Of a DNA stretch of 64,000 bases, positions 5,631 through 63,125 are shown piece after piece. Position 1 is the stretch's first letter; each line of letters opens with the position of its first letter. A model generated the notes under the pieces. It was not told the DNA's origin and ran no database searches. It worked only from the letters and a program-made list of their open reading frames with translations. Location of the stretch: the IMG/VR virus record IMGVR_UViG_3300037067_015007, positions 1-64,000 of that record. One strand, given 5' to 3'. Source of the stretch: a virus. Lineage: Duplodnaviria; Caudoviricetes. Made by a program: the position numbers and the translations under genes.

Positions 5631-5651
5631 TCTACCTAAATTATACCACAC
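5631..5651 (-). promoter_or_regulatory. extended -10 early promoter (TGTGGTATAAT-N-TAGGTAG class)
   Basis: gtgtggtataatttaggtag; related motif at 10434, 12930, 24947. Confidence 0.65.
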
Positions 5652-5666
5652 CTTGTTATGAAAAAT

Positions 5667-10249: not shown

Positions 10250-10452
10250 TAGTTTCTACGATATTTTTTAATTTTTTTAATGGCCAGGAATTGAACGATG
10301 CACCCTATATCAGCCAACAAAAACGCCGTCATTATTATATACAAATGTGCAAATAAAAATATAAGACTAAAGAAAGAATAATATAGTATTAATAATATAA
10401 GTATTATCCTTAATATATTCATCAATTTTCTCCTACCTATATTATACCACAT
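10246..10452 (-). CDS. small membrane protein
   Basis: hydrophobic 68-aa ORF; true start probably MNILR after GGAG. Confidence 0.5.
   Translation of the reverse strand: MWYNIGRRKLMNILRIILILLILYYSFFSLIFLFAHLYIIMTAFLLADIGCIVQFLAIKKIKKYRRNY
10434..10451 (-). promoter_or_regulatory. extended -10 early promoter
   Basis: tgtggtataatataggtag. Confidence 0.65.
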
Positions 10453-10470
10453 ATAGGTATAAAAAAATGT

Positions 10471-10811
10471 CGAGCGAAGCGAGACCCGAACGAAGTGAGG
10501 CGGGAGGTAATCTTTATGCTCAAATAAAATTTGAGCAGACTTCTAACGTCCACCTTTTCTTTTTTTCATTTTTTAAGAACCGAAAAGTTTTGAATTTTTG
10601 AACCCAAATCCTAACACTTAAAAATTTTAATAACTTACAACTTTTGAGCAGAATACAATCATTAGGGTAAAATGAAAAATTTACTTACAACGTATTTCTA
10701 TGCGACACATCCACATAGCGGAGCTTTGGAACACCAACCTGACAGACCAACTGCTCCTTTAGCGAACTTGTAATTAGGAAAGTGGTTGCTCAGACCACTT
10801 GTTACCTAATT
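10471..10811. other. non-coding region with GCGAAGC-type motifs and hairpins (possible origin or ncRNA)
   Basis: CGAGCGAAGCGAG / CGAACGAAGTGAG at 10471-10500, hairpin 10517-10537, long stem-loop 10772-10811, no ORF. Confidence 0.4.
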
Positions 10812-11468
10812 TATTTGTTCATAATTCTGATGTATTTGTTTTTTTTTATTACTTATTTTTGTTTTCCATTCTTGTAATTTATTATTTGCTATTTTTCCCC
10901 CATATTTTTTAAACCAAATACTATAAAGTGATTTACCAAACATAGGATTATTTTTTCCTTTGTATTTATTTTTTATTATTATTGATATTTTTTCTTTAGT
11001 TTCTTTACTTAAATGAGTTCCAAACATATGATTTTTTTCACCAAGTTTGCCAAACATAGGATTTTTATTACTTTTAAGAGCCTTACTTAATTTTATTTTT
11101 GTTTCTTTTGTAAGAGGTTTTCCAAAATTATGATTATTTTCACCACTCATTTTTTGTTTTGATATTTCATTATGATGTTTATGTTTATGCCCACCCGTTT
11201 CAAGATTATATCCATTTGGGGCTAACGTATTAAATTCTTTTATTAGAAAACTTTCTGTCCAATCTAAATTTTCTTCGGGACAGGAAAATGAAATCCACTT
11301 GAAATTTTCTATATCATATTTTTTAATAGCATTATTGAATGCACAACAAAAAGTAGATTTTTTATGTTTTCTTATTCTTTCCCTTAATATTTGTGTAGTT
11401 TGTCCTATATACTGTTTTCCATTGACTAAATTGGTGGCTATATAAATTGTTCCGTTGTCTTGATTCAT
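10806..11468 (-). CDS. GIY-YIG homing endonuclease with NUMOD3 repeats
   Basis: GTIY..TN.VNGKQYIGQT, E..I, PNGYN, NPMFGK repeats. Confidence 0.9.
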   Translation of the reverse strand: MNQDNGTIYIATNLVNGKQYIGQTTQILRERIRKHKKSTFCCAFNNAIKKYDIENFKWISFSCPEENLDWTESFLIKEFNTLAPNGYNLETGGHKHKHHNEISKQKMSGENNHNFGKPLTKETKIKLSKALKSNKNPMFGKLGEKNHMFGTHLSKETKEKISIIIKNKYKGKNNPMFGKSLYSIWFKKYGGKIANNKLQEWKTKISNKKKQIHQNYEQIN

Positions 11469-11567
11469 CTTTAACCTCTTCTACAAGTTAGAATTTTAGT
11501 GAGATAATTCAAAGTGGTAGAAGCACTTTGAAAAGGTAGCGAACCCTGTCTCTCACTATTATTTATT
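11469..11567 (-). ncRNA. endonuclease-associated pseudoknotted leader RNA, copy 1
   Basis: P1 UAGUGAGA/UCUCACUA, P3 CAAAGUG/CACUUUG, loop CUUCUAC pairs with GUAGAAG at the SD. Confidence 0.8.
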
Positions 11568-12929
11568 GTTTTCATAATATCTATTCATCCTTTTGTTTAA
11601 AATAATTTTTTTATTAATTTTAGATATTTTTTCAAATTTTTCCTTGGTGTCTGCTGTTGATAAAAATTTAAAAATTGCGTCTAAGACAAAATGATTTGTC
11701 CAATATAAATTCGTTAATTGAGTTGTTTCCTTATTGCGAAAATCTTTCCTGATATTTAATCTTCTTTCAATCATTATTTGTGTGGGTTGAGTTATTTTAA
11801 ATTTATCCTCAATATTTTTTCTTGATGGATTTTTTTCCTGCCATAGATACCATTCATAGAAAGGGTCAAAAAATTCCAACCTTCTCTGCTTGATGTATTC
11901 CAACAAAAATGTGATATCAACCTCAATCATTTTGTCGGATGTACTACTCAATGAATCGGTAAATTTTTGAGTTAGTGAACGAACTTTGTTAACCTCTGTA
12001 GTTTGTTCTAAAGTTCCAATCAAATTCAAATTTTTTAGAGTTTTAAAATGTCTTTCAAAATCAATATCAAGTTCTTTCCATTTTTTCTGAAGTAGTTTTA
12101 AATCAAAGGTGAGAGACTTACCTAACAGATAAGTCATAATAAGGTCGCCTGGTTTTTCTTGTTGCATTAGAATATCTAACACATATTTTAACACACTCTG
12201 TTTTAATTTAGGTTGATATTTTACCTGTTCAAAAATTTTCTCATAAATTGAATATTGCCAATCGTCTAATTTTTTCCAAGTCTTATCATTCTTGACAGGC
12301 GGCAACTCTTTCAATATTGGTGGTTTGATGAAGTTTTTATAGAGGAAGGAACTTTTTAAAAATCCTCTATCCATTTCTCTAGAATGGTTCCAATCAAAAT
12401 AAACCTTTTCATCATCGTATGATGTCATATCAGTATAAGTCAAGATGTAATTAATTTCATTTTGATAAAAAGCACACCATTCTGACATTTTGCATGTGCT
12501 TTCACACCGCAAATTTTTTCGTAATTCATTATCTTCTTTTATCCATTCTCTATATTCAGGAGTTTGTTCATAAGTTGGTTCTTTGGATAGGTGTTTATGA
12601 ATTTCCCACGAGGCCCGAAGAATTTCTTCCAAATGACTATCTCTACAAAGCCGCTCCGTCATGGGATGATATTTTTCAGGCTTGTCAATATTCTTATCCT
12701 TGAAAATTCTTATTAGTTCCTTTTCAAAACAGGATAAATGAGTAGCCTCATAAAACCTACAACGTTTATATTTCCCCATTTCTGCACATGGTTCGCATTT
12801 GTACTTAATTAATTGAAAATCAGAAAGATAGGGATAGAAGCATGCCTTTTTTATTTTCCTAAGTTGAAACAAGAGTGGTTCCTTGGGGTTCAACAAAAAA
12901 TCGAAACTTTCCCTAAATTTGAAATTCAC
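11559..12929 (-). CDS. hypothetical protein (456 aa, Cys-rich N-terminus)
   Basis: long ORF behind an early promoter. Confidence 0.75.
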   Translation of the reverse strand: MNFKFRESFDFLLNPKEPLLFQLRKIKKACFYPYLSDFQLIKYKCEPCAEMGKYKRCRFYEATHLSCFEKELIRIFKDKNIDKPEKYHPMTERLCRDSHLEEILRASWEIHKHLSKEPTYEQTPEYREWIKEDNELRKNLRCESTCKMSEWCAFYQNEINYILTYTDMTSYDDEKVYFDWNHSREMDRGFLKSSFLYKNFIKPPILKELPPVKNDKTWKKLDDWQYSIYEKIFEQVKYQPKLKQSVLKYVLDILMQQEKPGDLIMTYLLGKSLTFDLKLLQKKWKELDIDFERHFKTLKNLNLIGTLEQTTEVNKVRSLTQKFTDSLSSTSDKMIEVDITFLLEYIKQRRLEFFDPFYEWYLWQEKNPSRKNIEDKFKITQPTQIMIERRLNIRKDFRNKETTQLTNLYWTNHFVLDAIFKFLSTADTKEKFEKISKINKKIILNKRMNRYYENNK

Positions 12930-12947
12930 TACCCGTATTATACCACA
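12930..12947 (-). promoter_or_regulatory. extended -10 early promoter
   Basis: tgtggtataatacgggtag. Confidence 0.6.
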
Positions 12948-12982
12948 AGGTGTAATAAAATTCAGAGATAAAAATAAAAAAA

Positions 12983-16530: not shown

Positions 16531-19500
16531 TCAATCAAAATTATCTTCTAAAAACATTTCTTGATATGCTTCAAGTAAGGTAAGTTTTCGTCCTTTATCA
16601 TGGGCCGTCCACAATTTTCGATAAACATTTTGTAATTCTGCTGCTTTTTCCGAAATAATATCTTTTACCTGAAATGGGTGCATGACTTGAATAGGAAAAT
16701 TTTTAAAAAGAAGTGCATAATAAGTTCCTACTATAACTTTTTTATATTTTTCAATAAGTTTTGGAAGTATTTCCATGAATACTATAGTATCGCCTATTCC
16801 CGCATCAATCTGAAATATTTTACCTTCTATGGGAATAGACCAACTTGCCAATTTACGTTTGAATATCTTATCATCGTTTGACCAAAAATCAGGATTGGCA
16901 TGGTCTCTGATGCCGCCCTGCGGATTGCGGAAGTGCCAAGTGATAGCATCTGTCGTTACGAATATTTTCCACCCCTTGCGTACATATTCATGACTGAATA
17001 ATGTTTCTTCACGGTGAGCTGCGGGAGACAATTCCAAGCAATATTTGATATCTTCAACTTTTCGGTATAAGAATGAAGAATACAAATGCTCAACAGGAAT
17101 GACTTTACCTTTTGGATGATAAAGCCATTGCATATTTTCTCTTGTGTCAATATCTGATAATTTATTCGTATTGAAATAATTCGGCGGGGCCATTTGCGAC
17201 AATTTAGGGTCAAGTACAAGACCCGCAACTGCACCAACCCCATCAGTCATCAAGTTGACTAAATCCTGCAATACATTAGGCTCAGCGTATTCATCATCAT
17301 CCAATCTCCAAATGAAATCCGTCTTGGCTCTATCCAAAACAATTTGATGATTGTGATGTTGTCCTTTTTTCGGCCCGAATAAAACTTCCCATTCAATGCC
17401 TTTTTTGGAAATCATGCTGAACAGGTATTGATACATCGGGTCATTGCGAAGGTCAATCATTTTCCCATCAGGGCCATTGTCAGAGTCGTCAACGATGATG
17501 ATTTTTTTGATAGGGTGAGTCTGCATCAAGACGGAAAGTATTGTCAAAGGAAGCGTAGAGTAATAACGATTTTTCGTGGCGATGTCAACGGTAACATCAA
17601 CTTTCCTATTTGATGTTTTTGATACTTCAGGAGTTAATCTTGTTTGTATAGGATTCCAATTTTTCATGGTGCGGTATTTTTCCATTGCCGCTTGCCTACG
17701 TCTATTGAAATCGTTTAGGTTCTTTTCCAAATAATCTTTATCTTCCACTCCCCAACTCGTTTTAGTCGGGTCAGTCCAGATTTTTACATCTTCCCATTTT
17801 CTAGCATGCAATGCTCTGATTCCCAATCCCGCTTCAGGTCGGGTATTCGACCAAATATGTCTGTCATTGTCAGGCAATGCAGAAACAACTATTTTTACAT
17901 CGGTGTATTTTTTCAAGGTGTATGCAAAATGTAAATCATCACCTTCTGTTTCTAAAAGTACGGGTTCACGGAAGAATGTAGAAAACCATTCCTTTCTTCC
18001 AAACCAACTATGACCGCCGACATCTACTTCAACGGCTTCTTCTGTTTTATCTCCGTTATCCCCATATCTTTTTGCAAGACCATCATTCAACTCATTTTCA
18101 TAATACATTCCATATGCAGAGACGACAGCATGTTCTCGTTTTGAAACTTTCAATGTTTCTTCCAAGTATCCTTCAGCGGGGAATACATCATCATCTAATA
18201 AAAGAACATAGTTAGTTTTTGCAAAAAGAGCCGCAGCAAATCGAGCAGGAAGTTTCAAGTCTTGTTCAGTTGATACGAGTGTAACTCCTTCGGGAATATC
18301 AAAATGAGTTTCGACCCACCCCTCTCCTTTTACGACTTCATTATCTGCATATTTCCATTCCCCTTCTTCCCAATGTTTCGACTTCGTAAGCCATACGATA
18401 ATTTCCTTTGGCTTCAATGTCTGCTTCTTGATGGCCTCTACCTGGTCCTTCAAAAGTTCAGGACGGTTGAATGCCGAAATCACAACGGTGATATCGTCAT
18501 CAATCGGTTTCATTCTGTCGTAACGAACCAATTTGACTTTATCTTCTAAATAATCCTGTTTGAAGGTTTCTTCGAACCCTAAAGCCATGAGATAATTGCA
18601 CAGTTTATCAGCAAGACCTTTCTTTCCTTCCCAACGGAAAATATCTTCATGAGTTTCCATGACAATAGTGTGAATTTTACCAAGTGTTTTCAGCGATGCG
18701 CCGTAGAATAAATCATACTCCGCACCTTCGCAATCAACTTTCAATAGAATAGGTTTACCGTCATCAATAGATGCAACAAGATGGTCTAATCCGATTGTTT
18801 CGGTTCCTGACAATGATGGACGTGAATACATTCTTCCATCAGTCGGGCTGAACTCAGGACGATTGACCATTTCAACCCATTCCCCATCTTTCTTCCCCAC
18901 GGCTTTATCAATAACAAGTATTGACCTTCCTGCTACATTTTGTTTTAAAATTTGCAAGGTCGGTGGTTGGGGTTCAACGGCGACAATTCGCTCAGCTCCA
19001 TATTCATCAGCCAATAAACTGAATATGCCAATGTTTGCCCCTACATCGATTACATTTTTTCCAATGAAATCTTTTTTGAAAACTCTGTATTGGTTGGTTT
19101 CAACTATTTCATAAAAAATGGAACTGTTCTGTGCTTGTAAATCCCTTCGGGCAATCAATGGATTGGATGTTGGCGCATCGTCTAAAATAAATGATGCTTT
19201 CTTTTTCAGTTGGCGAAATTCCTCATATGTCATTTGTGCATCTCTTGCATAATGAAATGCCCAATTATTTTTCTTATCTTCATCGCTAACCCTATCTGCC
19301 ATTCTTTTGTTTCTTTCTATGAACTCCGTGTATCCTGCAAACTTGAAATGAAGAAGATATAATGCTTCGCCTGATTTTACAACAGTTCCAATTGGGTTTG
19401 CTTGATGGCATCCCATAGCATAGCGGATGTCAACACATTTCGGATTGAATATCATCGATTTATTCAAATGTTCAGGGTCAGGGAATCCTTCACGAACACA

Positions 19501-21291
19501 ATCATACAATTGCATAATTTGATTATCAGGAAATGTATCGGAAATCATCTGAAATCCAACTACTGTTGGAACGGTGATTCTTGCGCTCCGAAATTCTTCC
19601 AATTTTCCTTTCAGGTTTTTATGCCATAAAAACTCATCCATATCGCAAACGATAACCCAATCGTAATCTTCCCGATATTCTTTCCATGCCTCGTTTCGAA
19701 TTCTCATCAGTTCAAGATTATTCATCTTGTCGTTTGGCACGGGAACGATTTCAACTTTATCACATGCCCGAAGCAGTTCCAAACTCTTATCAGTCGAACC
19801 GCCGTCATAAACAATAATCTTATCTGCGAAAGTCAAATAATGACGAAGGAAAAACGGAATCATTTTTTCTTCATTCCAACATACTGCTTGAACGAGAATG
19901 CTCATAGGTTGTCCGTGGCTTCCTAATACTTCATCTACAAATATCCAAGGTTTTTCTTCAAAACAAGCCTTGGCAAAATCGAAATCATGGGTAACGAGAC
20001 CTGAAGTAACAGGCCCGACTTTTGGCCCTGTTGTTTTATGCCGCCATTTTTCCGCATGCTTTTTTGCGATATCTGCACGAACCAAATAATTTAAAGAATC
20101 GATATGTGTCCATACGGGGAAATTTTGAAATCCAGGTTCAGGTAAATCTTTGTTTTCTTCCAAATGTCTGATTTTACCCCAAGCCCCGCCGACATTTTTC
20201 AAAAATGTTGCTTGCCAAAGTTTCAAAATCCAATCAGAATTTGCTAAATTGTCGCTGTCATGAAAACAAACCCATTCTTTTTCGGTGGAAGGTAGCGAAT
20301 TTAAGACTGATATTCTTGGCCCCCCGCCGTATGCCCCCTCATGTTCAACAAAGGTATATTCTATTTCAGGAGGATTTGGTTTATTTGACCTAATAGGCCA
20401 TTCTCTATTTTTCTTTTCAACCAACTCTTGTACCTTTTCATCATGTCCATCAGAAACAACATGAATTTTAACGTTGGTATAATATTGATTATATAAAGAC
20501 TCCAATGCCTTATCGAGTTTCGTATATCGTTTATAAACAGGGACAATGACATGAACCTTTTCCCAATATTTTTCAGCAAGCAGTAGTCTGTTTTTATAAG
20601 TCTGTGTATTCCATTCGTCCAAAGAAAATAATTTGCCCGAATGCATCGTATTTTCACCAACATGACTGAGAGGAAATGAACCAACTGATGTATGTGTTTT
20701 TCTATCCCATCCATTCACATAGGAATGAATATGATATCCTGCGTTGATTGCCCGAATGCAAAAGTCAGTATCGTCCGCATAGCCTAAGCCCCAAGCAGTA
20801 TCCAATACTCCTATTCTTTCGAACACTTCCCTCTTTATCATTACACACCAACCGAGCGGGAAGTCAACTCCCGTTATAGGGCAAGGTAATGATTTGGCAC
20901 CAACCAATCCCATCAATGGGTCATTCTCAAATGGAGTCTGAAGAATTTCTAACCATCCACGGTCATGAACGATTACATCGTCATTTAAAAAAACAACATA
21001 ATCGGGATTATCATTTGGCCCTAAAATATTTTTTAGACCTTCATTAATGGCCCCGACATATCCTAAAGGTTTGTCATACCAAAGGTAACTTACAATTAAC
21101 CCTTGTTCTGCTAAAGGATTTAAGAATGCATCAAATTTTGCTCTATCTTCCATGCCGTTCATAACAATCAAAATTTTACTATTTATTTTTGGATTGTTGT
21201 TGAGATTCAGGCTTTCAATACATGGTTTAAGAGCATTGTCGAAATTAATCCCTGCGGATGGAATAAGAATAGTTATTTTCTTATCGTTCAT
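16531..21291 (-). CDS. multi-domain glycosyltransferase/methyltransferase (1586 aa)
   Basis: several GT2-like domains (VFLNDDV, CFHDSD, VCDMDE, LLLDDD, WRLDDDE), FkbM domain (IDVGANIG...LKVDCEGAEY), C-terminal GT9-N-like GIGD motif. Confidence 0.85.
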   Translation of the reverse strand: MNDKKITILIPSAGINFDNALKPCIESLNLNNNPKINSKILIVMNGMEDRAKFDAFLNPLAEQGLIVSYLWYDKPLGYVGAINEGLKNILGPNDNPDYVVFLNDDVIVHDRGWLEILQTPFENDPLMGLVGAKSLPCPITGVDFPLGWCVMIKREVFERIGVLDTAWGLGYADDTDFCIRAINAGYHIHSYVNGWDRKTHTSVGSFPLSHVGENTMHSGKLFSLDEWNTQTYKNRLLLAEKYWEKVHVIVPVYKRYTKLDKALESLYNQYYTNVKIHVVSDGHDEKVQELVEKKNREWPIRSNKPNPPEIEYTFVEHEGAYGGGPRISVLNSLPSTEKEWVCFHDSDNLANSDWILKLWQATFLKNVGGAWGKIRHLEENKDLPEPGFQNFPVWTHIDSLNYLVRADIAKKHAEKWRHKTTGPKVGPVTSGLVTHDFDFAKACFEEKPWIFVDEVLGSHGQPMSILVQAVCWNEEKMIPFFLRHYLTFADKIIVYDGGSTDKSLELLRACDKVEIVPVPNDKMNNLELMRIRNEAWKEYREDYDWVIVCDMDEFLWHKNLKGKLEEFRSARITVPTVVGFQMISDTFPDNQIMQLYDCVREGFPDPEHLNKSMIFNPKCVDIRYAMGCHQANPIGTVVKSGEALYLLHFKFAGYTEFIERNKRMADRVSDEDKKNNWAFHYARDAQMTYEEFRQLKKKASFILDDAPTSNPLIARRDLQAQNSSIFYEIVETNQYRVFKKDFIGKNVIDVGANIGIFSLLADEYGAERIVAVEPQPPTLQILKQNVAGRSILVIDKAVGKKDGEWVEMVNRPEFSPTDGRMYSRPSLSGTETIGLDHLVASIDDGKPILLKVDCEGAEYDLFYGASLKTLGKIHTIVMETHEDIFRWEGKKGLADKLCNYLMALGFEETFKQDYLEDKVKLVRYDRMKPIDDDITVVISAFNRPELLKDQVEAIKKQTLKPKEIIVWLTKSKHWEEGEWKYADNEVVKGEGWVETHFDIPEGVTLVSTEQDLKLPARFAAALFAKTNYVLLLDDDVFPAEGYLEETLKVSKREHAVVSAYGMYYENELNDGLAKRYGDNGDKTEEAVEVDVGGHSWFGRKEWFSTFFREPVLLETEGDDLHFAYTLKKYTDVKIVVSALPDNDRHIWSNTRPEAGLGIRALHARKWEDVKIWTDPTKTSWGVEDKDYLEKNLNDFNRRRQAAMEKYRTMKNWNPIQTRLTPEVSKTSNRKVDVTVDIATKNRYYSTLPLTILSVLMQTHPIKKIIIVDDSDNGPDGKMIDLRNDPMYQYLFSMISKKGIEWEVLFGPKKGQHHNHQIVLDRAKTDFIWRLDDDEYAEPNVLQDLVNLMTDGVGAVAGLVLDPKLSQMAPPNYFNTNKLSDIDTRENMQWLYHPKGKVIPVEHLYSSFLYRKVEDIKYCLELSPAAHREETLFSHEYVRKGWKIFVTTDAITWHFRNPQGGIRDHANPDFWSNDDKIFKRKLASWSIPIEGKIFQIDAGIGDTIVFMEILPKLIEKYKKVIVGTYYALLFKNFPIQVMHPFQVKDIISEKAAELQNVYRKLWTAHDKGRKLTLLEAYQEMFLEDNFD

Positions 21292-24946: not shown

Positions 24947-24965
24947 CTATCTATATTATACCATA
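24947..24965 (-). promoter_or_regulatory. extended -10 early promoter
   Basis: tatggtataatatagatag. Confidence 0.6.
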
Positions 24966-24972
24966 ACCTGTA

Positions 24973-25809
24973 CTAAATCCAATACCTCACAAATCTTTTA
25001 AACAGGTCTTTTATTTCACTCTTCTTCAATTCCTTGTCTTTCAATTCATCTTTGAAAATGGCTTGCCATTTGAAGTAAAGCCACTTCGTCAGGAGTTTGT
25101 AAACAATGTTCCACGGCAAAAAATTTCTACTGCGATATTTTTGCACGATGCCTAAGTCGGCACCTTCAAGACTTTTTGAAAATTCATCGATTCTTTTTTT
25201 ATGGATGGAATCCAACTGATTGATGTAAGTATCCAATTCAAGTTGTAGATAATTCAATCTCTCATCAAAATTCAAATCTGATTTATCGTAATCAGTTACA
25301 AGTCCCTGGACCATTTCTGCAATTTCATCTAATTGAATATCCAATCGTTTTGCAATTTGGGCGGCAAGTTTTTTGGGATTGGCTAACACAGCTTCCACTT
25401 CGTCCACTTCAGCAGGTTCCTTTATCCATTTATCCTGCAATAAATCATAGATGCCGTCAGCCAATGTTTCCATATCTTTCACTTCATCATTGCGGTAATA
25501 AAAATTGATTGGGAAAGGCCCGAAGAAATGACGCTCGTTGATAACCCTTGTGGTCTTGCCATAATTTTTCAAAGTGTCCGCATCGACATCACAAAATACA
25601 TTGCAATCAATGTCGGATTCTTGCGACCAAAATTTTCCCGTAATGGAACCTACGATTATCAATTCACGATACACAATTTTTAGTTCACGAAGAATATCTA
25701 TAATCCGTATGCGAATCAAAGGGTTGATTTTTTTGTCTTTCCACACATAGGGATTTTCCGATTCTTGTGCGGGGTCAATAATAGATTCACGCAAGGTTTT
25801 GAAGTTCAT
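24973..25809 (-). CDS. Pol-beta superfamily nucleotidyltransferase
   Basis: IVGSITGKFWSQESDIDCNV (GS-x-D-x-D) plus third acidic motif. Confidence 0.7.
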   Translation of the reverse strand: MNFKTLRESIIDPAQESENPYVWKDKKINPLIRIRIIDILRELKIVYRELIIVGSITGKFWSQESDIDCNVFCDVDADTLKNYGKTTRVINERHFFGPFPINFYYRNDEVKDMETLADGIYDLLQDKWIKEPAEVDEVEAVLANPKKLAAQIAKRLDIQLDEIAEMVQGLVTDYDKSDLNFDERLNYLQLELDTYINQLDSIHKKRIDEFSKSLEGADLGIVQKYRSRNFLPWNIVYKLLTKWLYFKWQAIFKDELKDKELKKSEIKDLFKRFVRYWI

Positions 25810-26687: not shown

Positions 26688-26924
26688 GTGATGGCTTTAT
26701 ACAAATTTTCTAAGCAACAAAAATATTGCGGGACATGCGATTATTGGTATGGTTGCAGAAAACTCGATTCTATTTGGAATCCAATGTTTGTTATTGTTGA
26801 AGGAGCAGGTGCCGAAGAAATGGGAGTTTGTGGACATCGCCGCAGCGGTTGGTGGAATCAGAAGAAAAAAGCAAATATGACTTGTCCGAAATGGGAATTG
26901 TTTGCAAGGTTGAAGAATCTCTAA
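26688..26924 (+). CDS. small Cys-rich protein
   Basis: CGTCDYW...C...CPKW. Confidence 0.5.
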   Translation: MMALYKFSKQQKYCGTCDYWYGCRKLDSIWNPMFVIVEGAGAEEMGVCGHRRSGWWNQKKKANMTCPKWELFARLKNL

Positions 26925-26926
26925 AA

Positions 26927-27640
26927 ATGGGAACAATATATATAGCAACTAACTTGACAAATCAAAAGCAATATGTGGGTAGAACTGTACAAAATTTTAA
27001 AAATAGGAAAAATAGTCATATAAAATTGAGCAAAGAAGAAAATCCAAAATTCTTTTTTCATAAGGCTATTAAAAAATATGGAGTAGATTCTTTTAAATGG
27101 ATATGTATAGAATATCCCAAAAAAGAGTTGAATGAAATGGAGATGTTTTGGATAAAGACTTTGGGCACAAAGGCACCAAATGGTTACAATTTAACTGACG
27201 GTGGAGAAGGTACTTTCAACCCATCAAAAATAACAAGAATGAAAATGAGTGAAAAAAGAAAAGGTATGTATGAAGGAGAAAAAAATCCTTTTTTCGGTAA
27301 ACATCATTCTACTGAAGTTTGCCAATTTTTATCTGATATCAATAAAGGTGAAAATCATCCGCATTGGGGTAAAAAACATTCTGAAAAAACCAAGCAACTA
27401 CAATCTTTAAATATAAAAAATCATCCACAAAGAAAAGAGATAAATGAAAAAATAAGAAAAGCCAAGTTAAAAATGTTCAAATTCCTATCTCCTAAAGGAA
27501 AAGAAGTTATTTGGAAAAATGGTATCAATAAATTTTGTGAATATTATCAACTAAACTATCATAGTATTTGTGCTATTATGAGCAATCATTGGAAACGAAC
27601 CGAATATAAAGGTTGGAAGTTTTTAGGGATGGTAGAATAA
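26927..27640 (+). CDS. GIY-YIG homing endonuclease with NUMOD3 repeats
   Basis: GTIYIATN...YVGRT, PNGYNLTDGGEG, NPFFGKHH; no leader RNA upstream. Confidence 0.9.
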   Translation: MGTIYIATNLTNQKQYVGRTVQNFKNRKNSHIKLSKEENPKFFFHKAIKKYGVDSFKWICIEYPKKELNEMEMFWIKTLGTKAPNGYNLTDGGEGTFNPSKITRMKMSEKRKGMYEGEKNPFFGKHHSTEVCQFLSDINKGENHPHWGKKHSEKTKQLQSLNIKNHPQRKEINEKIRKAKLKMFKFLSPKGKEVIWKNGINKFCEYYQLNYHSICAIMSNHWKRTEYKGWKFLGMVE

Positions 27641-55136: not shown

Positions 55137-56805
55137 AATAGGAACTGCGGGGCAAATTATTAATTTTAATTATGTCCACGAATTTATTGCACAAAATTTG
55201 AATAAGATTCTTTATTCAACTTTCACACCAGGCGTTTTAAAATTAGTTTTATCTGATTTTTCAGTAATCACAACAAAAGTTGAAATTCTTGAATTTTCAG
55301 GATTAATTAGACCATACAATAAAAACTTCATTGTAAAAGTAGATACAATGAACACTATAACGGTATTAACAGATTCTACAAAACCATATTTAGTAGCTCG
55401 TATGGATTGGATAACGCCGCCTGATGGATATGATTATGAAACGGCAACTTATGGAGTATCAGGATATTCTGGATATTTTGAAGATACTGCAATATCTTGT
55501 GAATCATTTGACCCTGTTGGAGATAAAATAATTTCAACAGACCATAAACTTGTGATAGGAGATGTGATTCGTTTTAGTGCAACGGTCGGCGGGGTTACAA
55601 AAGATGTAGATTATTATGTAGTCAATACCGATTCAAACTCATTTCAAATTTCTACGACAGCAGGTGGGACTGTTCTTGATATCATTAGCACTTTGTCAAT
55701 TACCAATACATATCGAAAAATGAATTCTCATATTGTGAGATTTGATATGGTTGCTGAAAATGACATCAATCCCGATTATGATGTCATTTTAGTGAAATTG
55801 GATTTCGGCCCTGGTGGAGCGAAAGTGGTACTTAATTATGCGGAACAAACCCAAGTTTATTTGAATGATTATTGCATAAATTATAATTTAGTTCAGCGGT
55901 CGGGAGTTCGAACTTTAGAAGGAACCAATACAGACTATATTGGCATTTTAGGATTTAGTGGGACATCAGGAATATATGATTCAACAGATGAAACAATCGA
56001 ACGTCATGTGGGCCACGCTTCAGGGCACATTCCTTGGAGTGAAGTATCGGGTTATACACCTGTAATGAATTATGGCCTCAATGCTCAATATGTAAATGGA
56101 ATAACAGTAAGTAATGCGGATAATAGTATCGGATTAAAAAATAATATTTTGTCAAAAAATATGGTCGCCGCTAGATTATTTTTAAATGGATTCGAATATG
56201 CAATAGGACAATCAGGAGTAACAACCTATTCGGGATTTTCAGGCTATACAGGAATTTCGGGATGGAGTGGCGTTTCGGGATATTCGGCTTATTCAGGATA
56301 TTTGCCCCTCAACAATGCCGTGTTGCAGACTTCATTGAATGCGGAATATTTCGGGGGATATAAAATTTCAGACTTTACTCCCGCAGGGCATACCCATAAT
56401 CTTGATGAAATTGCCGATGGAGTATCATATATAAGAATGAGAGGAGTAGATGTTGACGGTTTGGTAACAACCGATGGTCTGACTGATGGGGCATTGGAAT
56501 ATCGGCATCAAAGTATTTCCGTTCCATTTCGCTATGATGGAGCAACAGAAAAGAAAATGTTCGCATTGGCAGGAGAAATAATGAAGAATGGTTCGACAAC
56601 AGTAGCATTTAGAAAAACTTTCACTTCAGCTCCACGAGTGTTTATTCTAAATAATGAAAGTGATGAATGGAAAGCTGTAGATGAGGTATCAATAACTACG
56701 ACAGGATTTGTAATTCATCACCATGAAAATACTTCAGGTACTTCATTAGTAGCAGACACAACACTTTTTAGAACTCATTGGATTGCGATTGGAGAGTTGT
56801 CTTAA
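55126..56805 (+). CDS. tail fibre / baseplate protein, paralog 3
   Basis: GQIINFNY, LNAEYFGG, HTHNLDEI, SGYSG inserts, HWIAIG end. Confidence 0.7.
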   Translation: MQGKIGTAGQIINFNYVHEFIAQNLNKILYSTFTPGVLKLVLSDFSVITTKVEILEFSGLIRPYNKNFIVKVDTMNTITVLTDSTKPYLVARMDWITPPDGYDYETATYGVSGYSGYFEDTAISCESFDPVGDKIISTDHKLVIGDVIRFSATVGGVTKDVDYYVVNTDSNSFQISTTAGGTVLDIISTLSITNTYRKMNSHIVRFDMVAENDINPDYDVILVKLDFGPGGAKVVLNYAEQTQVYLNDYCINYNLVQRSGVRTLEGTNTDYIGILGFSGTSGIYDSTDETIERHVGHASGHIPWSEVSGYTPVMNYGLNAQYVNGITVSNADNSIGLKNNILSKNMVAARLFLNGFEYAIGQSGVTTYSGFSGYTGISGWSGVSGYSAYSGYLPLNNAVLQTSLNAEYFGGYKISDFTPAGHTHNLDEIADGVSYIRMRGVDVDGLVTTDGLTDGALEYRHQSISVPFRYDGATEKKMFALAGEIMKNGSTTVAFRKTFTSAPRVFILNNESDEWKAVDEVSITTTGFVIHHHENTSGTSLVADTTLFRTHWIAIGELS

Positions 56806-56812
56806 ATGAAAA

Positions 56813-56910
56813 TAATAAATAGTAGTGTAGGGACAGGGAGTCATGACCCTTTCAAGATGTCCACTCATCCTGAATTACCTACACTATATTTTGACCAAGT
56901 GGAGGGGCAA
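56813..56910 (+). ncRNA. endonuclease-associated pseudoknotted leader RNA, copy 7
   Basis: P1 UAGUGUAGG/CCUACACUA, P3 CAAGAUG/CAUCCUG, loop UCCACU pairs with AGUGGA at the SD. Confidence 0.8.
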
Positions 56911-57456
56911 ATGGATAATCAAAACGGAACGATTTATATAGCCACCAATCTAATCAATAGAAAGCAATATGTGGGGCAAACTATTAGAACTTTGAAAGAA
57001 AGAATAAACTGTCATAAATCTTCTCTTTCTTATTGTTTTGGAAATGCTATCAAAAAATACGGAATTCAAAATTTTAAATGGGTTCCTATTGAATATCCTA
57101 TTGAAGAATTAGATAAAATGGAGTGTTTTTGGATTCAAACACTAAACACCATTAGGCCTAATGGATATAATTTACAATATGGTGGACAAAAATCTCATTC
57201 TTATTCAGAAGAATTAAAAAGAAAAATGAGAGAAAATCATACAGATTATTCAGGAAAAAATCACCCTCGTTTTGGTTTACATTGGGATGAAGAACACAAA
57301 CAAAATCAAAGTAAAAAATTAAAAGGTAGGTTTATAGGTGAAAAAAATCCTAATTTTGGCAATAAATGGACACAAGAACAAAAAGATGCATTGAGTAAGA
57401 AAAAGAAAGAAATGCATCAAAATAAGATACAAAGAATAAATAATATAGAGGAGTAA
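56911..57456 (+). CDS. GIY-YIG homing endonuclease with NUMOD3 repeats
   Basis: GTIYIATN.IN.KQYVGQT, PNGYN, NPNFG. Confidence 0.9.
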   Translation: MDNQNGTIYIATNLINRKQYVGQTIRTLKERINCHKSSLSYCFGNAIKKYGIQNFKWVPIEYPIEELDKMECFWIQTLNTIRPNGYNLQYGGQKSHSYSEELKRKMRENHTDYSGKNHPRFGLHWDEEHKQNQSKKLKGRFIGEKNPNFGNKWTQEQKDALSKKKKEMHQNKIQRINNIEE

Positions 57457-57462
57457 GATAAA

Positions 57463-58566
57463 ATGGCAAAATATAAATCAGTTGCGGGTTATACAGGAAC
57501 AAATTATGACCAAAGTGTTATCTGGTCATATAAAACGGACATAGATAGAAATGTTCTTGCAAGATGGTTTGTTAATATTTACGAACAAGGGGTATTAAAA
57601 TACACTCCATCGGCTACAGGCCAAGTGGGGCCGACTATTGCGGCAGGAACATCTTTCTTGATTAAACAAAAAGATGCAACAAGTCCAAATGAAAAAATAG
57701 CCAAAGTCGATATGATTTATGACTATACTCTTCCTGTTTATGGTGATGCTGCGGGGTATGCTTTAATTGCTATGTGGGAAAACGCCGCAGACGAATATCG
57801 AGGCGTTGAATTTTATTTAAAAACCCCTGCTGAAATGGTATTAATAGTTGCCGCAGGATACAATTATGTTCAGTTCGGAACAGTAGAAATAGATTCAACG
57901 GCAGGGGCACCGACCCCAGGTTGGGTGGTTTCAAACACTACAGTTGGAATGACCCAAGCAGGTATGTCATCAGGATTGTTAGGTTATTCAGGATATAGCG
58001 GTATAGGTTTATCGGGATTCTCAGGTTATTCAGGAGACCCTGCCGCCAATTCAGGATTCTCAGGCTGGTCAGGAACATCGGGAGAAAAAGGTGATATCGG
58101 TCCAGGCGGTGGAGATTCAGGATTTTCAGGATGGTCGGGTGTATCAGGATATAGTAGTACAGTCCCAGGAAGTCAGGGAACTTCAGGATATTCAGGAAGG
58201 TCTGGCTTTTCAGGACTCACAGGTTCAGAATGTATTCTATTGACTTGTTCAGACGAAACTACTCCTTTGACGACAGGGACAAAAATAACATTCAGAATGC
58301 CTTATGCTATGAGTTTCTTATATGGTAGAGTCAAAGCAAGTTTAACAACTGCAAGTAGTGTAGGTATTACTGATATCGATGTCCGTAAGGCAGGACTGAC
58401 TATTTTATCAGCGTCAATATCTATGGGGCCAACCGAAGAAGTAAAAACAGGTGCAGGATTTTCTACAACTTCTTTAGTTGAAAATGATAAAATAACTGTT
58501 TATTTATCTTCAGTAGGAACAGGGGCAACGGGACTTAAAGTTTATTTGATTGGAAACAAGGCATAA
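57463..58566 (+). CDS. tail fibre-like protein with Gly-X-Ser collagen-like segment
   Basis: SGYSG/SGFSG run, then TTGTKITFRMPY...GLKVYLIG C-terminal domain. Confidence 0.7.
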   Translation: MAKYKSVAGYTGTNYDQSVIWSYKTDIDRNVLARWFVNIYEQGVLKYTPSATGQVGPTIAAGTSFLIKQKDATSPNEKIAKVDMIYDYTLPVYGDAAGYALIAMWENAADEYRGVEFYLKTPAEMVLIVAAGYNYVQFGTVEIDSTAGAPTPGWVVSNTTVGMTQAGMSSGLLGYSGYSGIGLSGFSGYSGDPAANSGFSGWSGTSGEKGDIGPGGGDSGFSGWSGVSGYSSTVPGSQGTSGYSGRSGFSGLTGSECILLTCSDETTPLTTGTKITFRMPYAMSFLYGRVKASLTTASSVGITDIDVRKAGLTILSASISMGPTEEVKTGAGFSTTSLVENDKITVYLSSVGTGATGLKVYLIGNKA

Positions 58567-58582
58567 AAATGGAGATTGAAAT

Positions 58583-59794
58583 ATGATTGGATTTGTTGAC
58601 CCTTATCAATTTACTAATGTTCCTGTAGGAGTTATTATTCCTTGGGCATCGGGAGCGCATATACCGCCTACGGGTTGGACTTTCTTTACTGCTCCAAATC
58701 CAGGTGTTGGTGGATTTAGCGGATGTTACATAAGAGCCGCAGGGGGAACAGTAGGTGTAAATACAACGGGAATTGGAGGCACTCCTGCGGGGCATGTAAG
58801 ATTTGATTCACAACCTGATGGGACACATCTTGGTACAGGCGGGGCAGCAAACCAAGCAGAAGCATATACGCAAGATGTACAATGCCCTGCCCATAATCCT
58901 TCTTGGAGATTAGAAGGCGGCGAAGAATCTGGAAATCATACACATACTTTAGATGCAACACCTGTAATGGGATATACACAATTTCAATTTATTAGGGCTT
59001 CAGTACAAGTTGAAAAATTTCCGATAAACGGTGTTCTCCTAAACACTACACACTCTGCAAGTTCTCTTCAATCAATTTATACTCAAATAGCAAGTACAGG
59101 AAAATATCTTCGAGCTGCCGATAGATATTCTTCCGCAGAAACTTCATGTCCGACAACAATGGACAATACTCTTGATAATGGAAAACACAGACATTATTGG
59201 TGGCCAGCATATTGGGCTTTAGGCCCAGGTGGGACAAATAGCCAAAATATTTTTTATAGTTCTGTTGGGCCAAATTGGGACGGATGGACAGGATATCATT
59301 TGCATACAATCAACTCAGTTAGTTTAGTAGATAATATTAAAAAAATATATACAACTGCATGGACAAATCAAACAACAGAATTTACAGGATTCAGAGGAAT
59401 GCTTGCATTTTGGGATGGAATAACACCTGCAACTTGTCCTGATGGATGGTCTCTCTGCGATGGTTCTAATGGAACAATTGATATGAGGGAATATTTTATT
59501 ATGATGGGTGGTATAACAGAAACAACGCCTTTGGGATTCAAAACAGGAACTAACCAAATTAATGTTGTACCCGCATCGGGAAATATGTTAGCGACTCAAA
59601 ACTTTACCAATCTTCCTGGTGGTCAGGGTCATAGGCATACTGAAAATGAATATGTAGATATTAGTGGTGGTTATAGATTAACAAGTGCATGGCATATGCC
59701 TTTTGATGTGAACCATTGGCACGGTTCAACACAAGGACTTAGCCTATCATATTATCCACAATATTATGGACTTTATGTTATTCAAAAATTATAA
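58583..59794 (+). CDS. tail collar-domain fibre protein
   Basis: VPVG.I..W....IPP.GW and P.GW.LCDG.NGT.D.R collar motifs. Confidence 0.75.
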   Translation: MIGFVDPYQFTNVPVGVIIPWASGAHIPPTGWTFFTAPNPGVGGFSGCYIRAAGGTVGVNTTGIGGTPAGHVRFDSQPDGTHLGTGGAANQAEAYTQDVQCPAHNPSWRLEGGEESGNHTHTLDATPVMGYTQFQFIRASVQVEKFPINGVLLNTTHSASSLQSIYTQIASTGKYLRAADRYSSAETSCPTTMDNTLDNGKHRHYWWPAYWALGPGGTNSQNIFYSSVGPNWDGWTGYHLHTINSVSLVDNIKKIYTTAWTNQTTEFTGFRGMLAFWDGITPATCPDGWSLCDGSNGTIDMREYFIMMGGITETTPLGFKTGTNQINVVPASGNMLATQNFTNLPGGQGHRHTENEYVDISGGYRLTSAWHMPFDVNHWHGSTQGLSLSYYPQYYGLYVIQKL

Positions 59795-59795
59795 A

Positions 59796-60338
59796 ATGAA
59801 AAAGAAATATTTTACAGAAGAAGAAAAAATAATTGCTAAAAAAGAATATCAAAAGAAGTATAAAAAAACGCATAAAGAAGAAAGAAAAAAATATGATAAA
59901 AAGTATTGTCAAAATCACAAAGAAAATATAGCCATAAAGAAGAAAGAATATTATGAAAACCATAAAGAAAAAACAAATATATATCAAAAAGAATATAGAA
60001 ATAATAGATTAAAAAAAGATATTAATTTTAGAATGATTTGCTATTTACGAAGTAGAATGTATTGGTCAATTAGAGGAAACTATAAATCAGGCTCCGCAGT
60101 CAGAGACCTCGGTTGTCCTATTTCTGAATTTAAGACCTATATAGAATCAAAGTTCCAAGACGGAATGACTTGGGAAAATTGGAGTAAAACGGGTTGGCAT
60201 ATAGACCATATTATACCTTTAGATTCTTTCAATCTTCAGAATAGGGAAGAATTTCTAAAAGCCTGTCATTATACAAATCTTCAACCTATGTGGGCTGAAG
60301 AGAATTTGAGAAAAGGGGGTAAAGTATGCCGAACATAA
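59796..60338 (+). CDS. HNH homing endonuclease
   Basis: WHIDHIIPLDSFNLQNREEFLKACHYTNLQPMWAEEN; no leader RNA upstream. Confidence 0.9.
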   Translation: MKKKYFTEEEKIIAKKEYQKKYKKTHKEERKKYDKKYCQNHKENIAIKKKEYYENHKEKTNIYQKEYRNNRLKKDINFRMICYLRSRMYWSIRGNYKSGSAVRDLGCPISEFKTYIESKFQDGMTWENWSKTGWHIDHIIPLDSFNLQNREEFLKACHYTNLQPMWAEENLRKGGKVCRT

Positions 60339-61165
60339 ATGCCCGTGAAATCATGGGGCTAGGAGCCGTATCAGGAATATCAGGATACAGCGGAAAAGTT
60401 GGAACATCAGGATATTCAGGAATTTCAGGAATATCAGGATGGAGTGGGGAAAATCCTGGTGCATCGGGACTTTCAGGATATAGTGCATGGTCAGGATTTT
60501 CAGGAATAAGTGCATGGTCAGGATTTTCAGGAATAAGTGCATGGTCAGGATTTTCAGGAGCAACAGGGGCATCAGGTTTTTCAGGAGTAGCAAGCGCAGC
60601 AACTTCAGGATGGTCTGGACCAAGTGGATTTTCAGGTTACTCAGGTAAAAGTGGATTCAGCGGCTACTCAGGTGTCTCAGGATTTTCAGGAGCAGGTACA
60701 AGTGGATTTTCTGCATGGAGTGGATATAGTGGATATAGTGGGTATAGTGGTAAAAGTGGGTATAGTGGCCCTTCAGGATATTCAGGCCCAAGCGGATATT
60801 CAAGTATAAGTGGATACAGCGGCCCTTCAGGATTTTCAGGATATAGTGCCGCCAACCTTGGATATTATTCAGCAACTTTTGATGCCTCTGCTTCTTGGTC
60901 AGATGCAACAACTTATTACAGAGTTGATTTTACTCACAATCTTAATTCACAAAAACTTCTCGTTCAAGTTTGGGATGAAACTATTTCACCAGGAAATTCG
61001 GGATATGACCCTGTTCCTGTAGCACCATATTATGAAACACAAACAATTCCTAAACCGTTCCAACTTGTAAAAAGAGGAGCAAATGTTCTCAGATTGCAAG
61101 TAAACCAAACACCAGGAGTTGATGGACGTTTTGCAGGTAGAATTGTTATTGTAAGTGTACCGTAA
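60326..61165 (+). CDS. collagen-like (Gly-X-Ser)n virion protein
   Basis: about 165 aa of SGYSG/SGFSG/SAWSG, then F.HNLN...LVQVWD domain. Confidence 0.8.
   Translation: MPNINAREIMGLGAVSGISGYSGKVGTSGYSGISGISGWSGENPGASGLSGYSAWSGFSGISAWSGFSGISAWSGFSGATGASGFSGVASAATSGWSGPSGFSGYSGKSGFSGYSGVSGFSGAGTSGFSAWSGYSGYSGYSGKSGYSGPSGYSGPSGYSSISGYSGPSGFSGYSAANLGYYSATFDASASWSDATTYYRVDFTHNLNSQKLLVQVWDETISPGNSGYDPVPVAPYYETQTIPKPFQLVKRGANVLRLQVNQTPGVDGRFAGRIVIVSVP
60482..60559 (+). repeat. 27-bp tandem repeat x3
   Basis: agtgcatggtcaggattttcaggaata repeated, encodes SAWSGFSGI. Confidence 0.85.
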
Positions 61166-61191
61166 TTTTTCGATAAGGATAAATAATTTAG

Positions 61192-61515
61192 ATGGGCTTA
61201 CAAGCAGGAGAGATACTTCTAAACAATAATCAATCAGCATATGCTGACCTGCTAACCTTCTACACTTTAACTTTCAAAGGTGCGAAAATAGCATACACCA
61301 TAATTCGAGGCGACCTAGTTGAACAAGGCGATATTTATTTATCATACAATCGATTTGCTGATACTGCACAAATAACAACAGAAGCAAATTTTGACGATAC
61401 AGGTGTTCAATTTTGCGCTTCAGTTAATGAAGGGTATATTCGTCTTTTGTACACATCGACAAATACGGGAATAACTCCCATTTTCAAACATAACATAACA
61501 TTCTTTCCACTATAA
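61192..61515 (+). CDS. small virion-type hypothetical protein
   Basis: 107-aa ORF behind a late motif. Confidence 0.65.
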   Translation: MGLQAGEILLNNNQSAYADLLTFYTLTFKGAKIAYTIIRGDLVEQGDIYLSYNRFADTAQITTEANFDDTGVQFCASVNEGYIRLLYTSTNTGITPIFKHNITFFPL

Positions 61516-63125
61516 TGAGCAAGAGAATATTTCAAAACTGCGGTAAGGTTTTTACAATAGAAGATAGTGGTCTAATTACCGCAGGAGATACTTCTCAATA
61601 TGACACATTAGTAACAAGCGATAATGATATTCCAAATAAAGCATATGTAGATTCTCATGGTGCTGGTGCATCAGGATGGTCAGGATATTCTGGACCAAGT
61701 GGTTATTCTGGACCAAGTGGGTATTCAGGTATATCAGGATTTTCAAGTCAAAGTGGCTATTCAGGAGTCAGCGGATTTACAGGTTATTCAGGAGTTAGTG
61801 GTTATTCAGGATATTCAGGAGTAAGTGGATATTCAGGATATTCAGGAGTCAGCGGTTATAGTGGAACAAGTGGATATTCAGGCTATTCAGGCGTAAGTGG
61901 TTATTCAGGGGTAAGCGGTTTCTCTGCCTACAGCGGAATAAGTGGATATTCAGGCGTAAGTGGTTATTCAGGTAAAAGTGGATATAGCGGCTACAGCGGG
62001 GCTAGTGGTTTTAGTGGATTGGCTTCAATTGGGGGAGCATATGTTTACACTAAACTAGTTGGTGATGCAAATGCCACTTGGACTATCGTTCATAACTTAG
62101 GTCAACAATATGTTAATGTACAATTAATTAATGGAGCAACAGGAACGGCATTTGATGGAACTTATGATTTTCCAACAATAACTTTTGATAATGCAAACCA
62201 ATTAACAGTTACATTTGGTTCTGCACAATATGGTTGGGCTTCAGTTGTATCAGGCGGCGGCATTAGTGGATACTCAGGTTCAGATGCACAGCAATCAGGA
62301 TATAGCGGTGTTTCAGGATATAGTGGAGTAAGTGGATATAGTGGAGTCTCAGGATTTTCTGGAACAGTAACAAAGGGAAATACAGGAGATTCAGGATATA
62401 GCGGTTATTCAGGGGTCAGCGGTTACAGCGGAGTCAGCGGTTATTCAGGTAAAAGTGGATATAGCGGTTACTCAGGCGTAAGTGGTTACTCTGCATACTC
62501 AGGCGTAAGTGGTTATTCAGGCTATTCAGGGACTAGCGGTTATTCAGGCAAAAGTGGATATAGCGGTTACTCAGGCGTATCAGGCACTTCGGGTTGGAGC
62601 GGTACTTCAGGCACAAAAGGCAATACAGGCGCAACAGGCACATCGGGCTACTCAGGCACATCAGGCGCAAAGGGTGCATCAGGCGCAAAAGGCACATCGG
62701 GCTACTCAGGCACATCTGGATACTCCGGAGTTGGTACTACGACAGGAACTTGGACTCCAACAATTACAGGGGGCACTACAGAAGGAACAACGACTTATAC
62801 TATTCAAGATGGTTATTATATTCAAATAGGAAAATTAGTATATGCAACTTGTAGGGTAACTTGGACAAATGCTACAGGCACAGGCACAATAAAGTTAGAT
62901 GGTCTTCCTGCAACAGTTAAAAATGTTACAAACGGAACGCAAGTTATAACGATATATGCTCAAAGTGGGATTGCACATACTGCGGGAAATTTAATACAAG
63001 GATATTTAGTTCCTAATACAACTTATGGACTTATGACCCAAGTGGATAAAGATGGAGTACTTGATAATTTATATATAGTTACAGCAGGTTCATTCAGACT
63101 TGGGATAACATATTTGGCAGAATAG
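61515..63125 (+). CDS. collagen-like (Gly-X-Ser)n tail fibre
   Basis: two long SGYSGVSGYSG blocks, W.I.HNLG domain, C-terminal GTWTP...Y.QIGKLV fibre domain. Confidence 0.85.
   Translation: MSKRIFQNCGKVFTIEDSGLITAGDTSQYDTLVTSDNDIPNKAYVDSHGAGASGWSGYSGPSGYSGPSGYSGISGFSSQSGYSGVSGFTGYSGVSGYSGYSGVSGYSGYSGVSGYSGTSGYSGYSGVSGYSGVSGFSAYSGISGYSGVSGYSGKSGYSGYSGASGFSGLASIGGAYVYTKLVGDANATWTIVHNLGQQYVNVQLINGATGTAFDGTYDFPTITFDNANQLTVTFGSAQYGWASVVSGGGISGYSGSDAQQSGYSGVSGYSGVSGYSGVSGFSGTVTKGNTGDSGYSGYSGVSGYSGVSGYSGKSGYSGYSGVSGYSAYSGVSGYSGYSGTSGYSGKSGYSGYSGVSGTSGWSGTSGTKGNTGATGTSGYSGTSGAKGASGAKGTSGYSGTSGYSGVGTTTGTWTPTITGGTTEGTTTYTIQDGYYIQIGKLVYATCRVTWTNATGTGTIKLDGLPATVKNVTNGTQVITIYAQSGIAHTAGNLIQGYLVPNTTYGLMTQVDKDGVLDNLYIVTAGSFRLGITYLAE

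Follow-up and report, generated by a model that had tools for sequence, protein, structure and literature searches.

A kissing-loop leader RNA and its reading frame as the probable control region of a mobile homing endonuclease cassette in an uncultured T4-superfamily giant phage

For a homing endonuclease gene, expression has to suffice for spread without reaching a level that harms the phage that carries it, and the control of free-standing homing endonucleases has been named an open area in a review of the T4 systems (PMC2988022). The locus described here raises this question in a particular form. It lies within the first 64 kb of an IMG/VR virus contig of 89 kb, about 39% complete (record IMGVR_UViG_3300037067_015007; these 64,000 nucleotides are the window that we analysed). 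There, a gene for a 220-aa homing endonuclease with GIY-YIG and NUMOD3 domains (10806..11468, minus strand; Pfam matches at 1e-08 and 1.5e-12, respectively) begins with its ATG at 11468-11466, behind a 456-aa gene on the same strand (11559..12929) whose stop codon occupies 11561-11559. What controls the translation of the nuclease at such a position? Our analysis suggests that the minus-strand segment 11575-11466 is the control region of a mobile homing endonuclease cassette, in which a kissing-loop structure probably acts as a translational lock on the nuclease gene and coupled translation through the leader probably opens it. Read in this direction, the segment runs ATG AAA ACA ATA AAT AAT AG..., followed by a structured stretch, GAGG, 6 nt and ATG.

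Fold of the leader and the kissing loops

Folding of the minus strand from 11558 to 11463 gives a single structure, P1 to P4, in both the minimum free energy and the centroid predictions (-23.8 kcal/mol, z = -2.2). Its 5' part is a three-way junction at 11497..11558, on which the two folds agree and which covariation supports. P1 pairs 11558-11551 with 11504-11497 (UAGUGAGA/UCUCACUA), the small hairpin P2 pairs 11547-11543 with 11537-11533, and P3 pairs 11532-11524 with 11516-11508 (UUCAAAGUG/CACUUUGAA) and carries the loop CUUCUAC at 11523-11517. The junction strand J1/2 is GACA, and J3/1, which is UUA, is longer than J2/3. A 6-nt linker separates the junction from the hairpin P4 (11472..11490), whose stem UAACUU/AGGUUA closes the loop GUAGAAG at 11484-11478, with AAG and the AUG following. 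An earlier note on this DNA had claimed that CUUCUAC and GUAGAAG pair as a pseudoknot. Indeed, the P3 loop is exactly complementary to 11484-11478, and the CTTCTAC...GTAGAAG pattern occurs once in the window and in 0/100 shuffles. Since GUAGAAG is itself the 7-nt loop of P4, the contact is better described as loop-loop kissing between P3 and P4 than as a plain pseudoknot. The GAGG Shine-Dalgarno sequence (11478-11475) straddles the P4 loop and the P4 3' arm, and in the predicted structure the Shine-Dalgarno sequence of the nuclease gene is occluded by the kiss together with P4.

Sequence and covariation carry the fold, the kiss and the occlusion of the Shine-Dalgarno sequence, as they do the mobility of the cassette and the frame statistics described below. 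In a MAFFT alignment of 50 copies of the leader, 8/9 P3 pairs change on both sides, and P1 covariation is confined to the two innermost pairs, with the outer UAGUG invariant and its partner unpaired in a few copies. These two innermost pairs turn from GC to AU on both sides in 18/59 and 6/59 copies. The AGA/UCU inner pairs of the 11469-11575 copy are one such compensatory variant, and the change that the note had read in P1 is confirmed by the UAGUGAAG/CUUCACUA or UAGUGUAGG/CCUACACUA found at this place in other copies. The outer P1 3' arm CACUA is kept in 52-57/59 copies and decayed in 4-7/59. Because the tail register of the MAFFT alignment is inconsistent, we measured the kiss by a script and then on an Infernal alignment, A7, in which a second model (R2) with P1-P4 but without the kiss served to realign 60 matches; P4 was assessed from single-sequence folds and from A7. 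By the script, at least 6 contiguous complementary nucleotides are present in the kiss of 57/57 distinct copies, in 47 different sequences, and among the initial 49 copies the cognate loop/tail duplexes have a mean of -9.2 kcal/mol versus -4.4 for non-cognate ones. On A7, 92.8% of the kiss cells are paired and 6/7 kiss pairs change on both sides, with up to four Watson-Crick types per position, and sliding the partners by 1-3 columns lowers the pairing to 38-54%. P4 is paired in 81.9% of cells on the same alignment, and 5/6 of its pairs change on both sides; the P4 stem of some copies has an internal A.G mismatch. The covariation score of the whole structure is 0.530 versus 0.221 in shuffles, of which 0/500 reach it. 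The junction nucleotides GACA and AUUA and the GG/CC of P2 are invariant or nearly so amid stems that are fully turned over. Finally, the helices contain 28 G-U pairs versus 4 A-C pairs on the gene strand, which argues that the RNA is made from the strand of the nuclease gene.

Comparisons with catalogued RNAs were negative. None of the 4227 families of Rfam release 15 matches anywhere in the window at the gathering score, and a search with the leader element at E up to 10 gives chance-level hits only. Beyond this Rfam comparison, readings of the junction as a hammerhead, a pistol or a k-turn were set aside, as its GACA, UU and AUUA strands are without the defining motifs.

The cassette, its promoter and its family

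As the earlier note had proposed, the locus is a single member of a set of repeated structured leaders. By repeat finding and a motif search, seven copies lie in the window, at 11565, 16525 and 23312 on the minus strand and at 35345, 40003, 50945 and 56816 on the plus strand. The 89-kb contig has 10 copies by pattern and 11 by the covariance model R1, to which the 11469-11575 copy gives the top score within its own contig (97.3 bits). The pattern finds 42 further loci in about 25 uncultured virus contigs, which include genomes of 239, 223 and 169 kb, and R1 has 8 matches in the complete 223-kb relative G001, 5 in G002 and 2 in G003; 60 distinct leader sequences are known overall. The copies fold individually into the common three-way junction and the common P4. 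Wherever the gene downstream of a copy can be identified it is a nuclease gene, and at least four families are represented. Among 48 distinct downstream proteins, 19 are GIY-YIG proteins (15 of them with NUMOD3) and 7 have DUF7487, three of these also DUF559; a group without a Pfam match, marked by "KKYFTEEER", matches phrog_1035 (endonuclease VII-like), and the remaining ones include matches to HNH or homing-endonuclease PHROGs. The leader thus precedes unrelated nuclease families. In the open-access literature we found no described kissing-loop or RNA motif on homing endonuclease genes, and we regard the leader family, which is also without an Rfam match, as uncatalogued.

Members of these nuclease families also occur in the window without the structured leader. 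A GIY-YIG gene at 26927-27640 (plus strand) directly follows a small Cys-rich ORF (open reading frame; TAAAAATG), and an EndoVII-like gene at 59796-60338 (plus strand) has its start inside the end of the preceding gene. Decayed copies of the leader are seen at L015:8594-8698 (G001:123946-124050) and at L038:8852-8954; one of the two is truncated after the P3 5' arm, and the other, though it keeps P1-P3, no longer has P4, the start codon or the Shine-Dalgarno sequence.

The mobility of the leader is best seen from an empty site. In G001 the orthologue of the upstream gene (51% identity) has a different end, and it is followed by no promoter box, leader or nuclease. Homology to G001 resumes at a conserved noncoding element 3' of the nuclease gene, just past a hairpin at 10780..10800 (minus strand; stem AAGUGGU/ACCACUU, loop cugagca), which we read from the sequence directly 3' of the nuclease stop and which is probably the 3' end of the cassette. 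The empty site shows that promoter, leader and nuclease gene are one insertion, that the leader moves together with the nuclease gene, and that the last codons of the upstream gene are supplied by the conserved 5' flank of the cassette. Insertion tight behind stop codons is general in the leader family, in which TAAATG, TAATG and ATGA junctions are common.

The 5' edge of the cassette is an ATAAATA box (11560..11566, minus strand; TAAATA at 11565-11560). The upstream gene ends with the codons GAA AAC AAT AAA TAA, and its stop codon falls within this box, as the earlier note had seen from the AAT AAA TAA ending. The box is kept in every copy with the full fold, apart from a single divergent copy that reads TGAATA. 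In the contig, about 20 structural genes that have no such fold also carry an (A/C)TAAATA box, 10-50 nt ahead of their start codons, and a TATAAATA-like box thus recurs directly 5' of virion genes. Homologues of the T4 late sigma factor gp55 are found in G001 and G002 (E about 1e-7, 29-30% identity) and none in the phage's own contig, which is only about 39% complete. The recurrence of the box and the gp55 homologues in relatives indicate that TAAATA is very probably a T4-type late promoter. In three ORFs the ATG follows such a box by 6-7 nt, in keeping with a T4-like start-site spacing. With this spacing, transcription of the leader would start about 6 nt past its box, at about the fifth nucleotide of P1, a position that matches the lack of covariation and the partial decay in outer P1. 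The three sites are at 13521 (minus strand), 26678 and 61179 (both plus strand), and their ORFs are a doubtful one of 42 aa, a Cys-rich one of 77 aa (26692-26925) and one of 107 aa (61192-61515); if transcription starts as in T4, their mRNAs would be leaderless. A different promoter class is represented by four copies of TGTGGTATAAT-A(T/C)(A/G)GGTAG directly before genes, at 5632-5663, 10433-10464, 12929-12960 and 24947-24978 (minus-strand reading). Its motif marks this repeat as a host sigma-70-type promoter with an extended -10, in contrast to the TAAATA late class, and it is probably the early-promoter class of the phage.

The genome around the cassette is that of a contractile-tailed virus with sheath and baseplate genes, and the sheath protein shares about 28% identity with those of T4-superfamily phages, a distant relationship. 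A blastn search with the leader element and its 2-kb neighbourhood against 50,697 deposited phage genomes gave no match, which suggests a phage without a cultured close relative; the source is an uncultured T4-superfamily giant phage. The upstream 456-aa protein has no family match, and a PHROG search with it was negative. The noncoding element at which homology to G001 resumes (about 130 nt; window 10640-10775, minus strand; L079:2965-3090) is about 75% identical between the phage and G001, has an invariant core AAAGGAGCAGT..TGTCAGGTTGGTG, is relatively GC-rich, and lies 3' of the 456-aa gene or of the cassette and 5' of two terminator-like hairpins. Rfam has no match to it, even at E up to 5, and it may be a novel small RNA. 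Elsewhere in the window, a 1586-aa methyltransferase and glycosyltransferase protein is encoded at 16531-21291 (minus strand), directly 5' of the second leader copy, and long 9-nt-periodic repeat arrays at 56200-62750 (plus strand) code for collagen-like G-[YFW]-S-G tracts in several tail-fibre-like genes. A scan for tRNA and tmRNA genes found nothing.

The leader reading frame and a probable opening of the lock

If the ribosome-binding site is hidden, how could the nuclease be made? A possible answer lies in a leader ORF of 34 codons (MKTINNSERQG...; 11471..11575, minus strand), which had been noted beforehand and which does run through P1-P4 to a UAA at 11473-11471, 2 nt before the GIY-YIG ATG. 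Its AUG (11575-11573) is 10 nt before TAAATA, and the ORF overlaps the end of the upstream gene by 17 nt. The 11469-11575 copy has the layout of translational coupling, with a start beside the upstream stop, a frame open through the fold and a stop at the nuclease start. Because the leader AUG lies upstream of TAAATA, it would be present only on read-through transcripts and not on those from the cassette's own promoter.

Start offsets, frame openness and association with upstream ORFs across the family all bear out the idea that the leader ORF is part of the element. The promoter box closes two frames (TAA, TAA/TAG) and one frame stays open. Among 59 distinct copies, an ATG or GTG stands at offset -10 relative to TAAATA in 18 and at -13 in 8, with 0-4 at other offsets, and both -10 and -13 are in the frame left open by the box. 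The -13 class has a variable extra codon, suggesting that it is the frame that is conserved, not the sequence. In the 20 copies with NTGA at -10, N is A in 12, G in 6, T in 2 and C in 0. The frame reaches to within 6 nt of the nuclease start in 20/26 copies with a leader start versus 13/31 without (p = 0.015), and an upstream ORF ends within 45 nt in 24/25 versus 21/33 (p = 0.004). Copies with a leader start have a mean of 0.24 stops in the tail in the leader frame versus 0.68 and 0.80 in the other two; copies without it show no such bias (0.42 versus 0.52 and 0.52). Among the start-bearing copies, the frame is fused in frame to the nuclease in 11, stops at -5 to +1 relative to the nuclease AUG in 10, the 11469-11575 copy included, and stops earlier, at -13 or beyond, in 5. 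Terminator-like hairpins (for example GGCCC..GGGGCC followed by a T-run) lie about 30-77 nt 5' of leader copies without a leader start in L017 and L037; this would fit a start codon kept only where ribosomes arrive from upstream. We read the leader-frame statistics as marks of translational coupling, with p values that are modest and copies that are related by descent. On these sequence features, the 34-codon frame is probably functional, and in the 11469-11575 copy it may re-open the lock on the ribosome site.

The mechanism that we favour would work as follows. The cassette brings its own late promoter, TAAATA, and a 5' leader of about 95 nt, which would fold into the three-way junction P1-P3 and then P4, the 7-nt P3 loop pairing with the 7-nt P4 loop. 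The kiss and the P4 stem would bury the GAGG Shine-Dalgarno sequence and the spacer to the AUG, so that by default loading of the 30S subunit would be blocked and the nuclease hardly made. In the junction, the GACA and AUUA strands are invariant and P1 equals P3 in length; it probably turns P3 back alongside P1, bringing the P3 loop to P4. Published three-way-junction classifications have P3 bending toward P1 in junctions of this kind. A second layer, coupling through the leader frame, is likely in the 11469-11575 copy and in about 45% of copies. On a read-through mRNA, ribosomes that finish the upstream late gene would restart at the leader AUG, melt the lock as they translate P1-P4, stop 2 nt before the nuclease AUG and be able to reinitiate there. 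The outcome would be a low synthesis of the nuclease, tied to the translation of the flanking phage gene. The transcription start, the repression itself, the translation of the leader and the reinitiation are the steps that we infer. A stronger form of this proposal, which we put forward only tentatively, is that the leader is a portable two-input gate, in which the kiss silences the cassette's own transcripts and only ribosomes coming from the flanking gene through the leader frame open it. If this holds, expression of the parasite would depend on, and scale with, translation of the flanking host gene, each copy would have its private 6-7-nt kissing sequence, and the three-way junction would be a scaffold that pre-positions both loops.

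Several observations weigh against a lock opened by coupled translation. With the T4 geometry, the cassette's own transcripts lose the leader AUG and outer P1 yet keep P3, P4 and the kiss; the mRNA that this promoter yields would thus be a locked one, which is puzzling. Since a leader start codon is missing from about half of the copies, coupled unlocking cannot be the general mechanism. In the 11469-11575 copy the leader AUG is 14 nt 5' of the upstream stop and lacks a good Shine-Dalgarno sequence, and a restart there would need backward scanning. Statistically, the case for the ORF is modest (p = 0.004-0.03) and comes from copies that are related by descent and hence not independent. In the 11 start-bearing copies whose frame runs into the nuclease, an N-terminally extended protein is expected, not reinitiation. 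Finally, the strict conservation of the junction nucleotides exceeds the apparent need of a simple lock.

Some of these observations would be accounted for by a constitutive throttle, in which the kiss permanently lowers nuclease translation on all transcripts, and the leader frame with its start codons is an ineffective by-product of the placing of a conserved cassette end directly after stop codons. The copies without a leader start and the tight insertion behind stops throughout the family agree with such a throttle; moreover, with the other two frames closed by the promoter box, a single frame can be open anyway, and the conserved core is stop-free in the leader frame in 23/31 copies without a start codon. 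A by-product is harder to reconcile with start codons at two in-frame offsets, with the variable extra codon of the -13 class, with the biased N of NTGA at -10, and with the tie of start codons to adjacent upstream ORFs and open frames, and we consider the throttle alone a rather unlikely explanation. The marked conservation of GACA, P2 GG/CC and AUUA amid turned-over stems, together with the fact that P1 and P2 are dispensable for mere masking of the ribosome site, might instead point to the three-way junction as a sensor, to which a small ligand or a protein of phage or host origin would bind, changing the presentation of the P3 loop and so opening or closing the kiss. Against a sensor, even at E up to 10 there is no Rfam family match, the unpaired nucleotides that are conserved make a very small core for an aptamer, and a scaffold role with P3 folded along P1 explains the conservation equally well; we regard it as quite improbable.

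The position of the promoter raises another alternative, a temporal switch in the style of T4, in which late transcripts lacking UAGU(G) would have a weakened junction and be translated, and read-through transcripts with full P1 would be locked, as in I-TevI. The T4 precedent is described in PMC2988022. The box is 1 nt before P1 and the promoter overlaps the P1 5' arm, whose invariant UAGUG matches the downstream region of other late promoters of the phage (RTATWG-like). The decay of the outer 3' arm while the inner pairs covary would also agree with such a switch, as would the three genes with an ATG 6-7 nt past TAAATA, which fit a transcription start at about this distance from the box. With this T4 spacing, however, late transcripts would not be freed of the inhibitory part, as they would lack no more of P1 than its outer 4-5 nt. 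The parts that cover the ribosome site, the P3 loop and P4, are downstream of any plausible start and still form; folds truncated at the proposed late start show no consistent release of the lock, with P3 persisting in 38/57 copies, and the outer 3' arm CACUA is kept in the large majority of copies. Such a switch is in our view improbable. An antisense or separate small RNA from the opposite strand is scarcely credible, since the G-U pairs of the gene strand would become mismatches there and it is the gene strand that carries the promoter box, the start codon and the Shine-Dalgarno sequence; a fold of the antisense strand was rejected on the G-U and A-C counts.

Comparison with known systems

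The kissing lock with coupled opening that we favour has its closest parallels in the T-even phages, whose homing endonuclease genes are under the control of RBS-sequestering hairpins and perhaps of translational coupling as well (PMC2988022). A sequestering hairpin with a late promoter is described for I-TevI, I-TevII, I-TevIII, segB and Aeh1 mobE (Edgell, Gibb & Belfort 2010, PMC2988022). Like these leaders, ours is a cis RNA structure of a T4-type phage that hides the Shine-Dalgarno sequence of a homing endonuclease gene by pairing it inside a conserved fold (GAGG in P4), it has a late promoter of the TATAAATA type at the 5' edge of the structure, and its presumed purpose is the same, to keep a harmful nuclease scarce or late. 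The differences are clear as well. In place of the single stable hairpin of the T-even genes there is a three-way junction and a second hairpin, about 95 nt in all, joined by a 7-bp loop-loop kiss; one module accompanies about 60 genes, drawn from four or more nuclease families, and is mobile together with them; the promoter is upstream of the whole masking part, so that late transcripts would stay locked; and a leader ORF crosses the structure. Coupling of free-standing endonuclease genes to upstream genes is also suspected in T4, where mobE has UAAUGA and segC, segF and mobA have overlaps (PMC2988022); scanning ribosomes that reinitiate have been described as well (Adhin & van Duin 1990, as cited in PMC2988022). 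As in T4, the start in our family overlaps or abuts the stop of the upstream phage gene in TAAATG, TAATG and ATGA forms, and the output of the nuclease would be tied to that of the upstream gene and stay below it. Unlike the T4 cases, an intermediate leader frame of 34-36 codons would have to unwind a structured lock, and, depending on the copy, this frame either terminates at the nuclease start or continues into the nuclease in frame. The leader-frame statistics point to a testable route for a mobile gene to link its translation with that of its host gene.

Like curated Rfam families, the leader is a cis-regulatory RNA with strong covariation, here without a family match, and the family adds a large, strongly covarying and uncatalogued RNA module that stands before unrelated nuclease families. 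At about 110 nt the module is small, and some 50 natural variants reveal its rules of pairing, so that testing it with reporters in common laboratory bacteria should be simple. Loop-loop kissing complexes are familiar from antisense control, as in RNA I/RNA II of ColE1 and CopA/CopT of R1. The leader resembles these systems in that full Watson-Crick pairing of two 6-7-nt loops hides a translation or priming signal, and differs from them in that both loops are in cis in one molecule, about 55 nt apart and held by a three-way junction; it would be a natural example of a cis kissing-loop translational lock.

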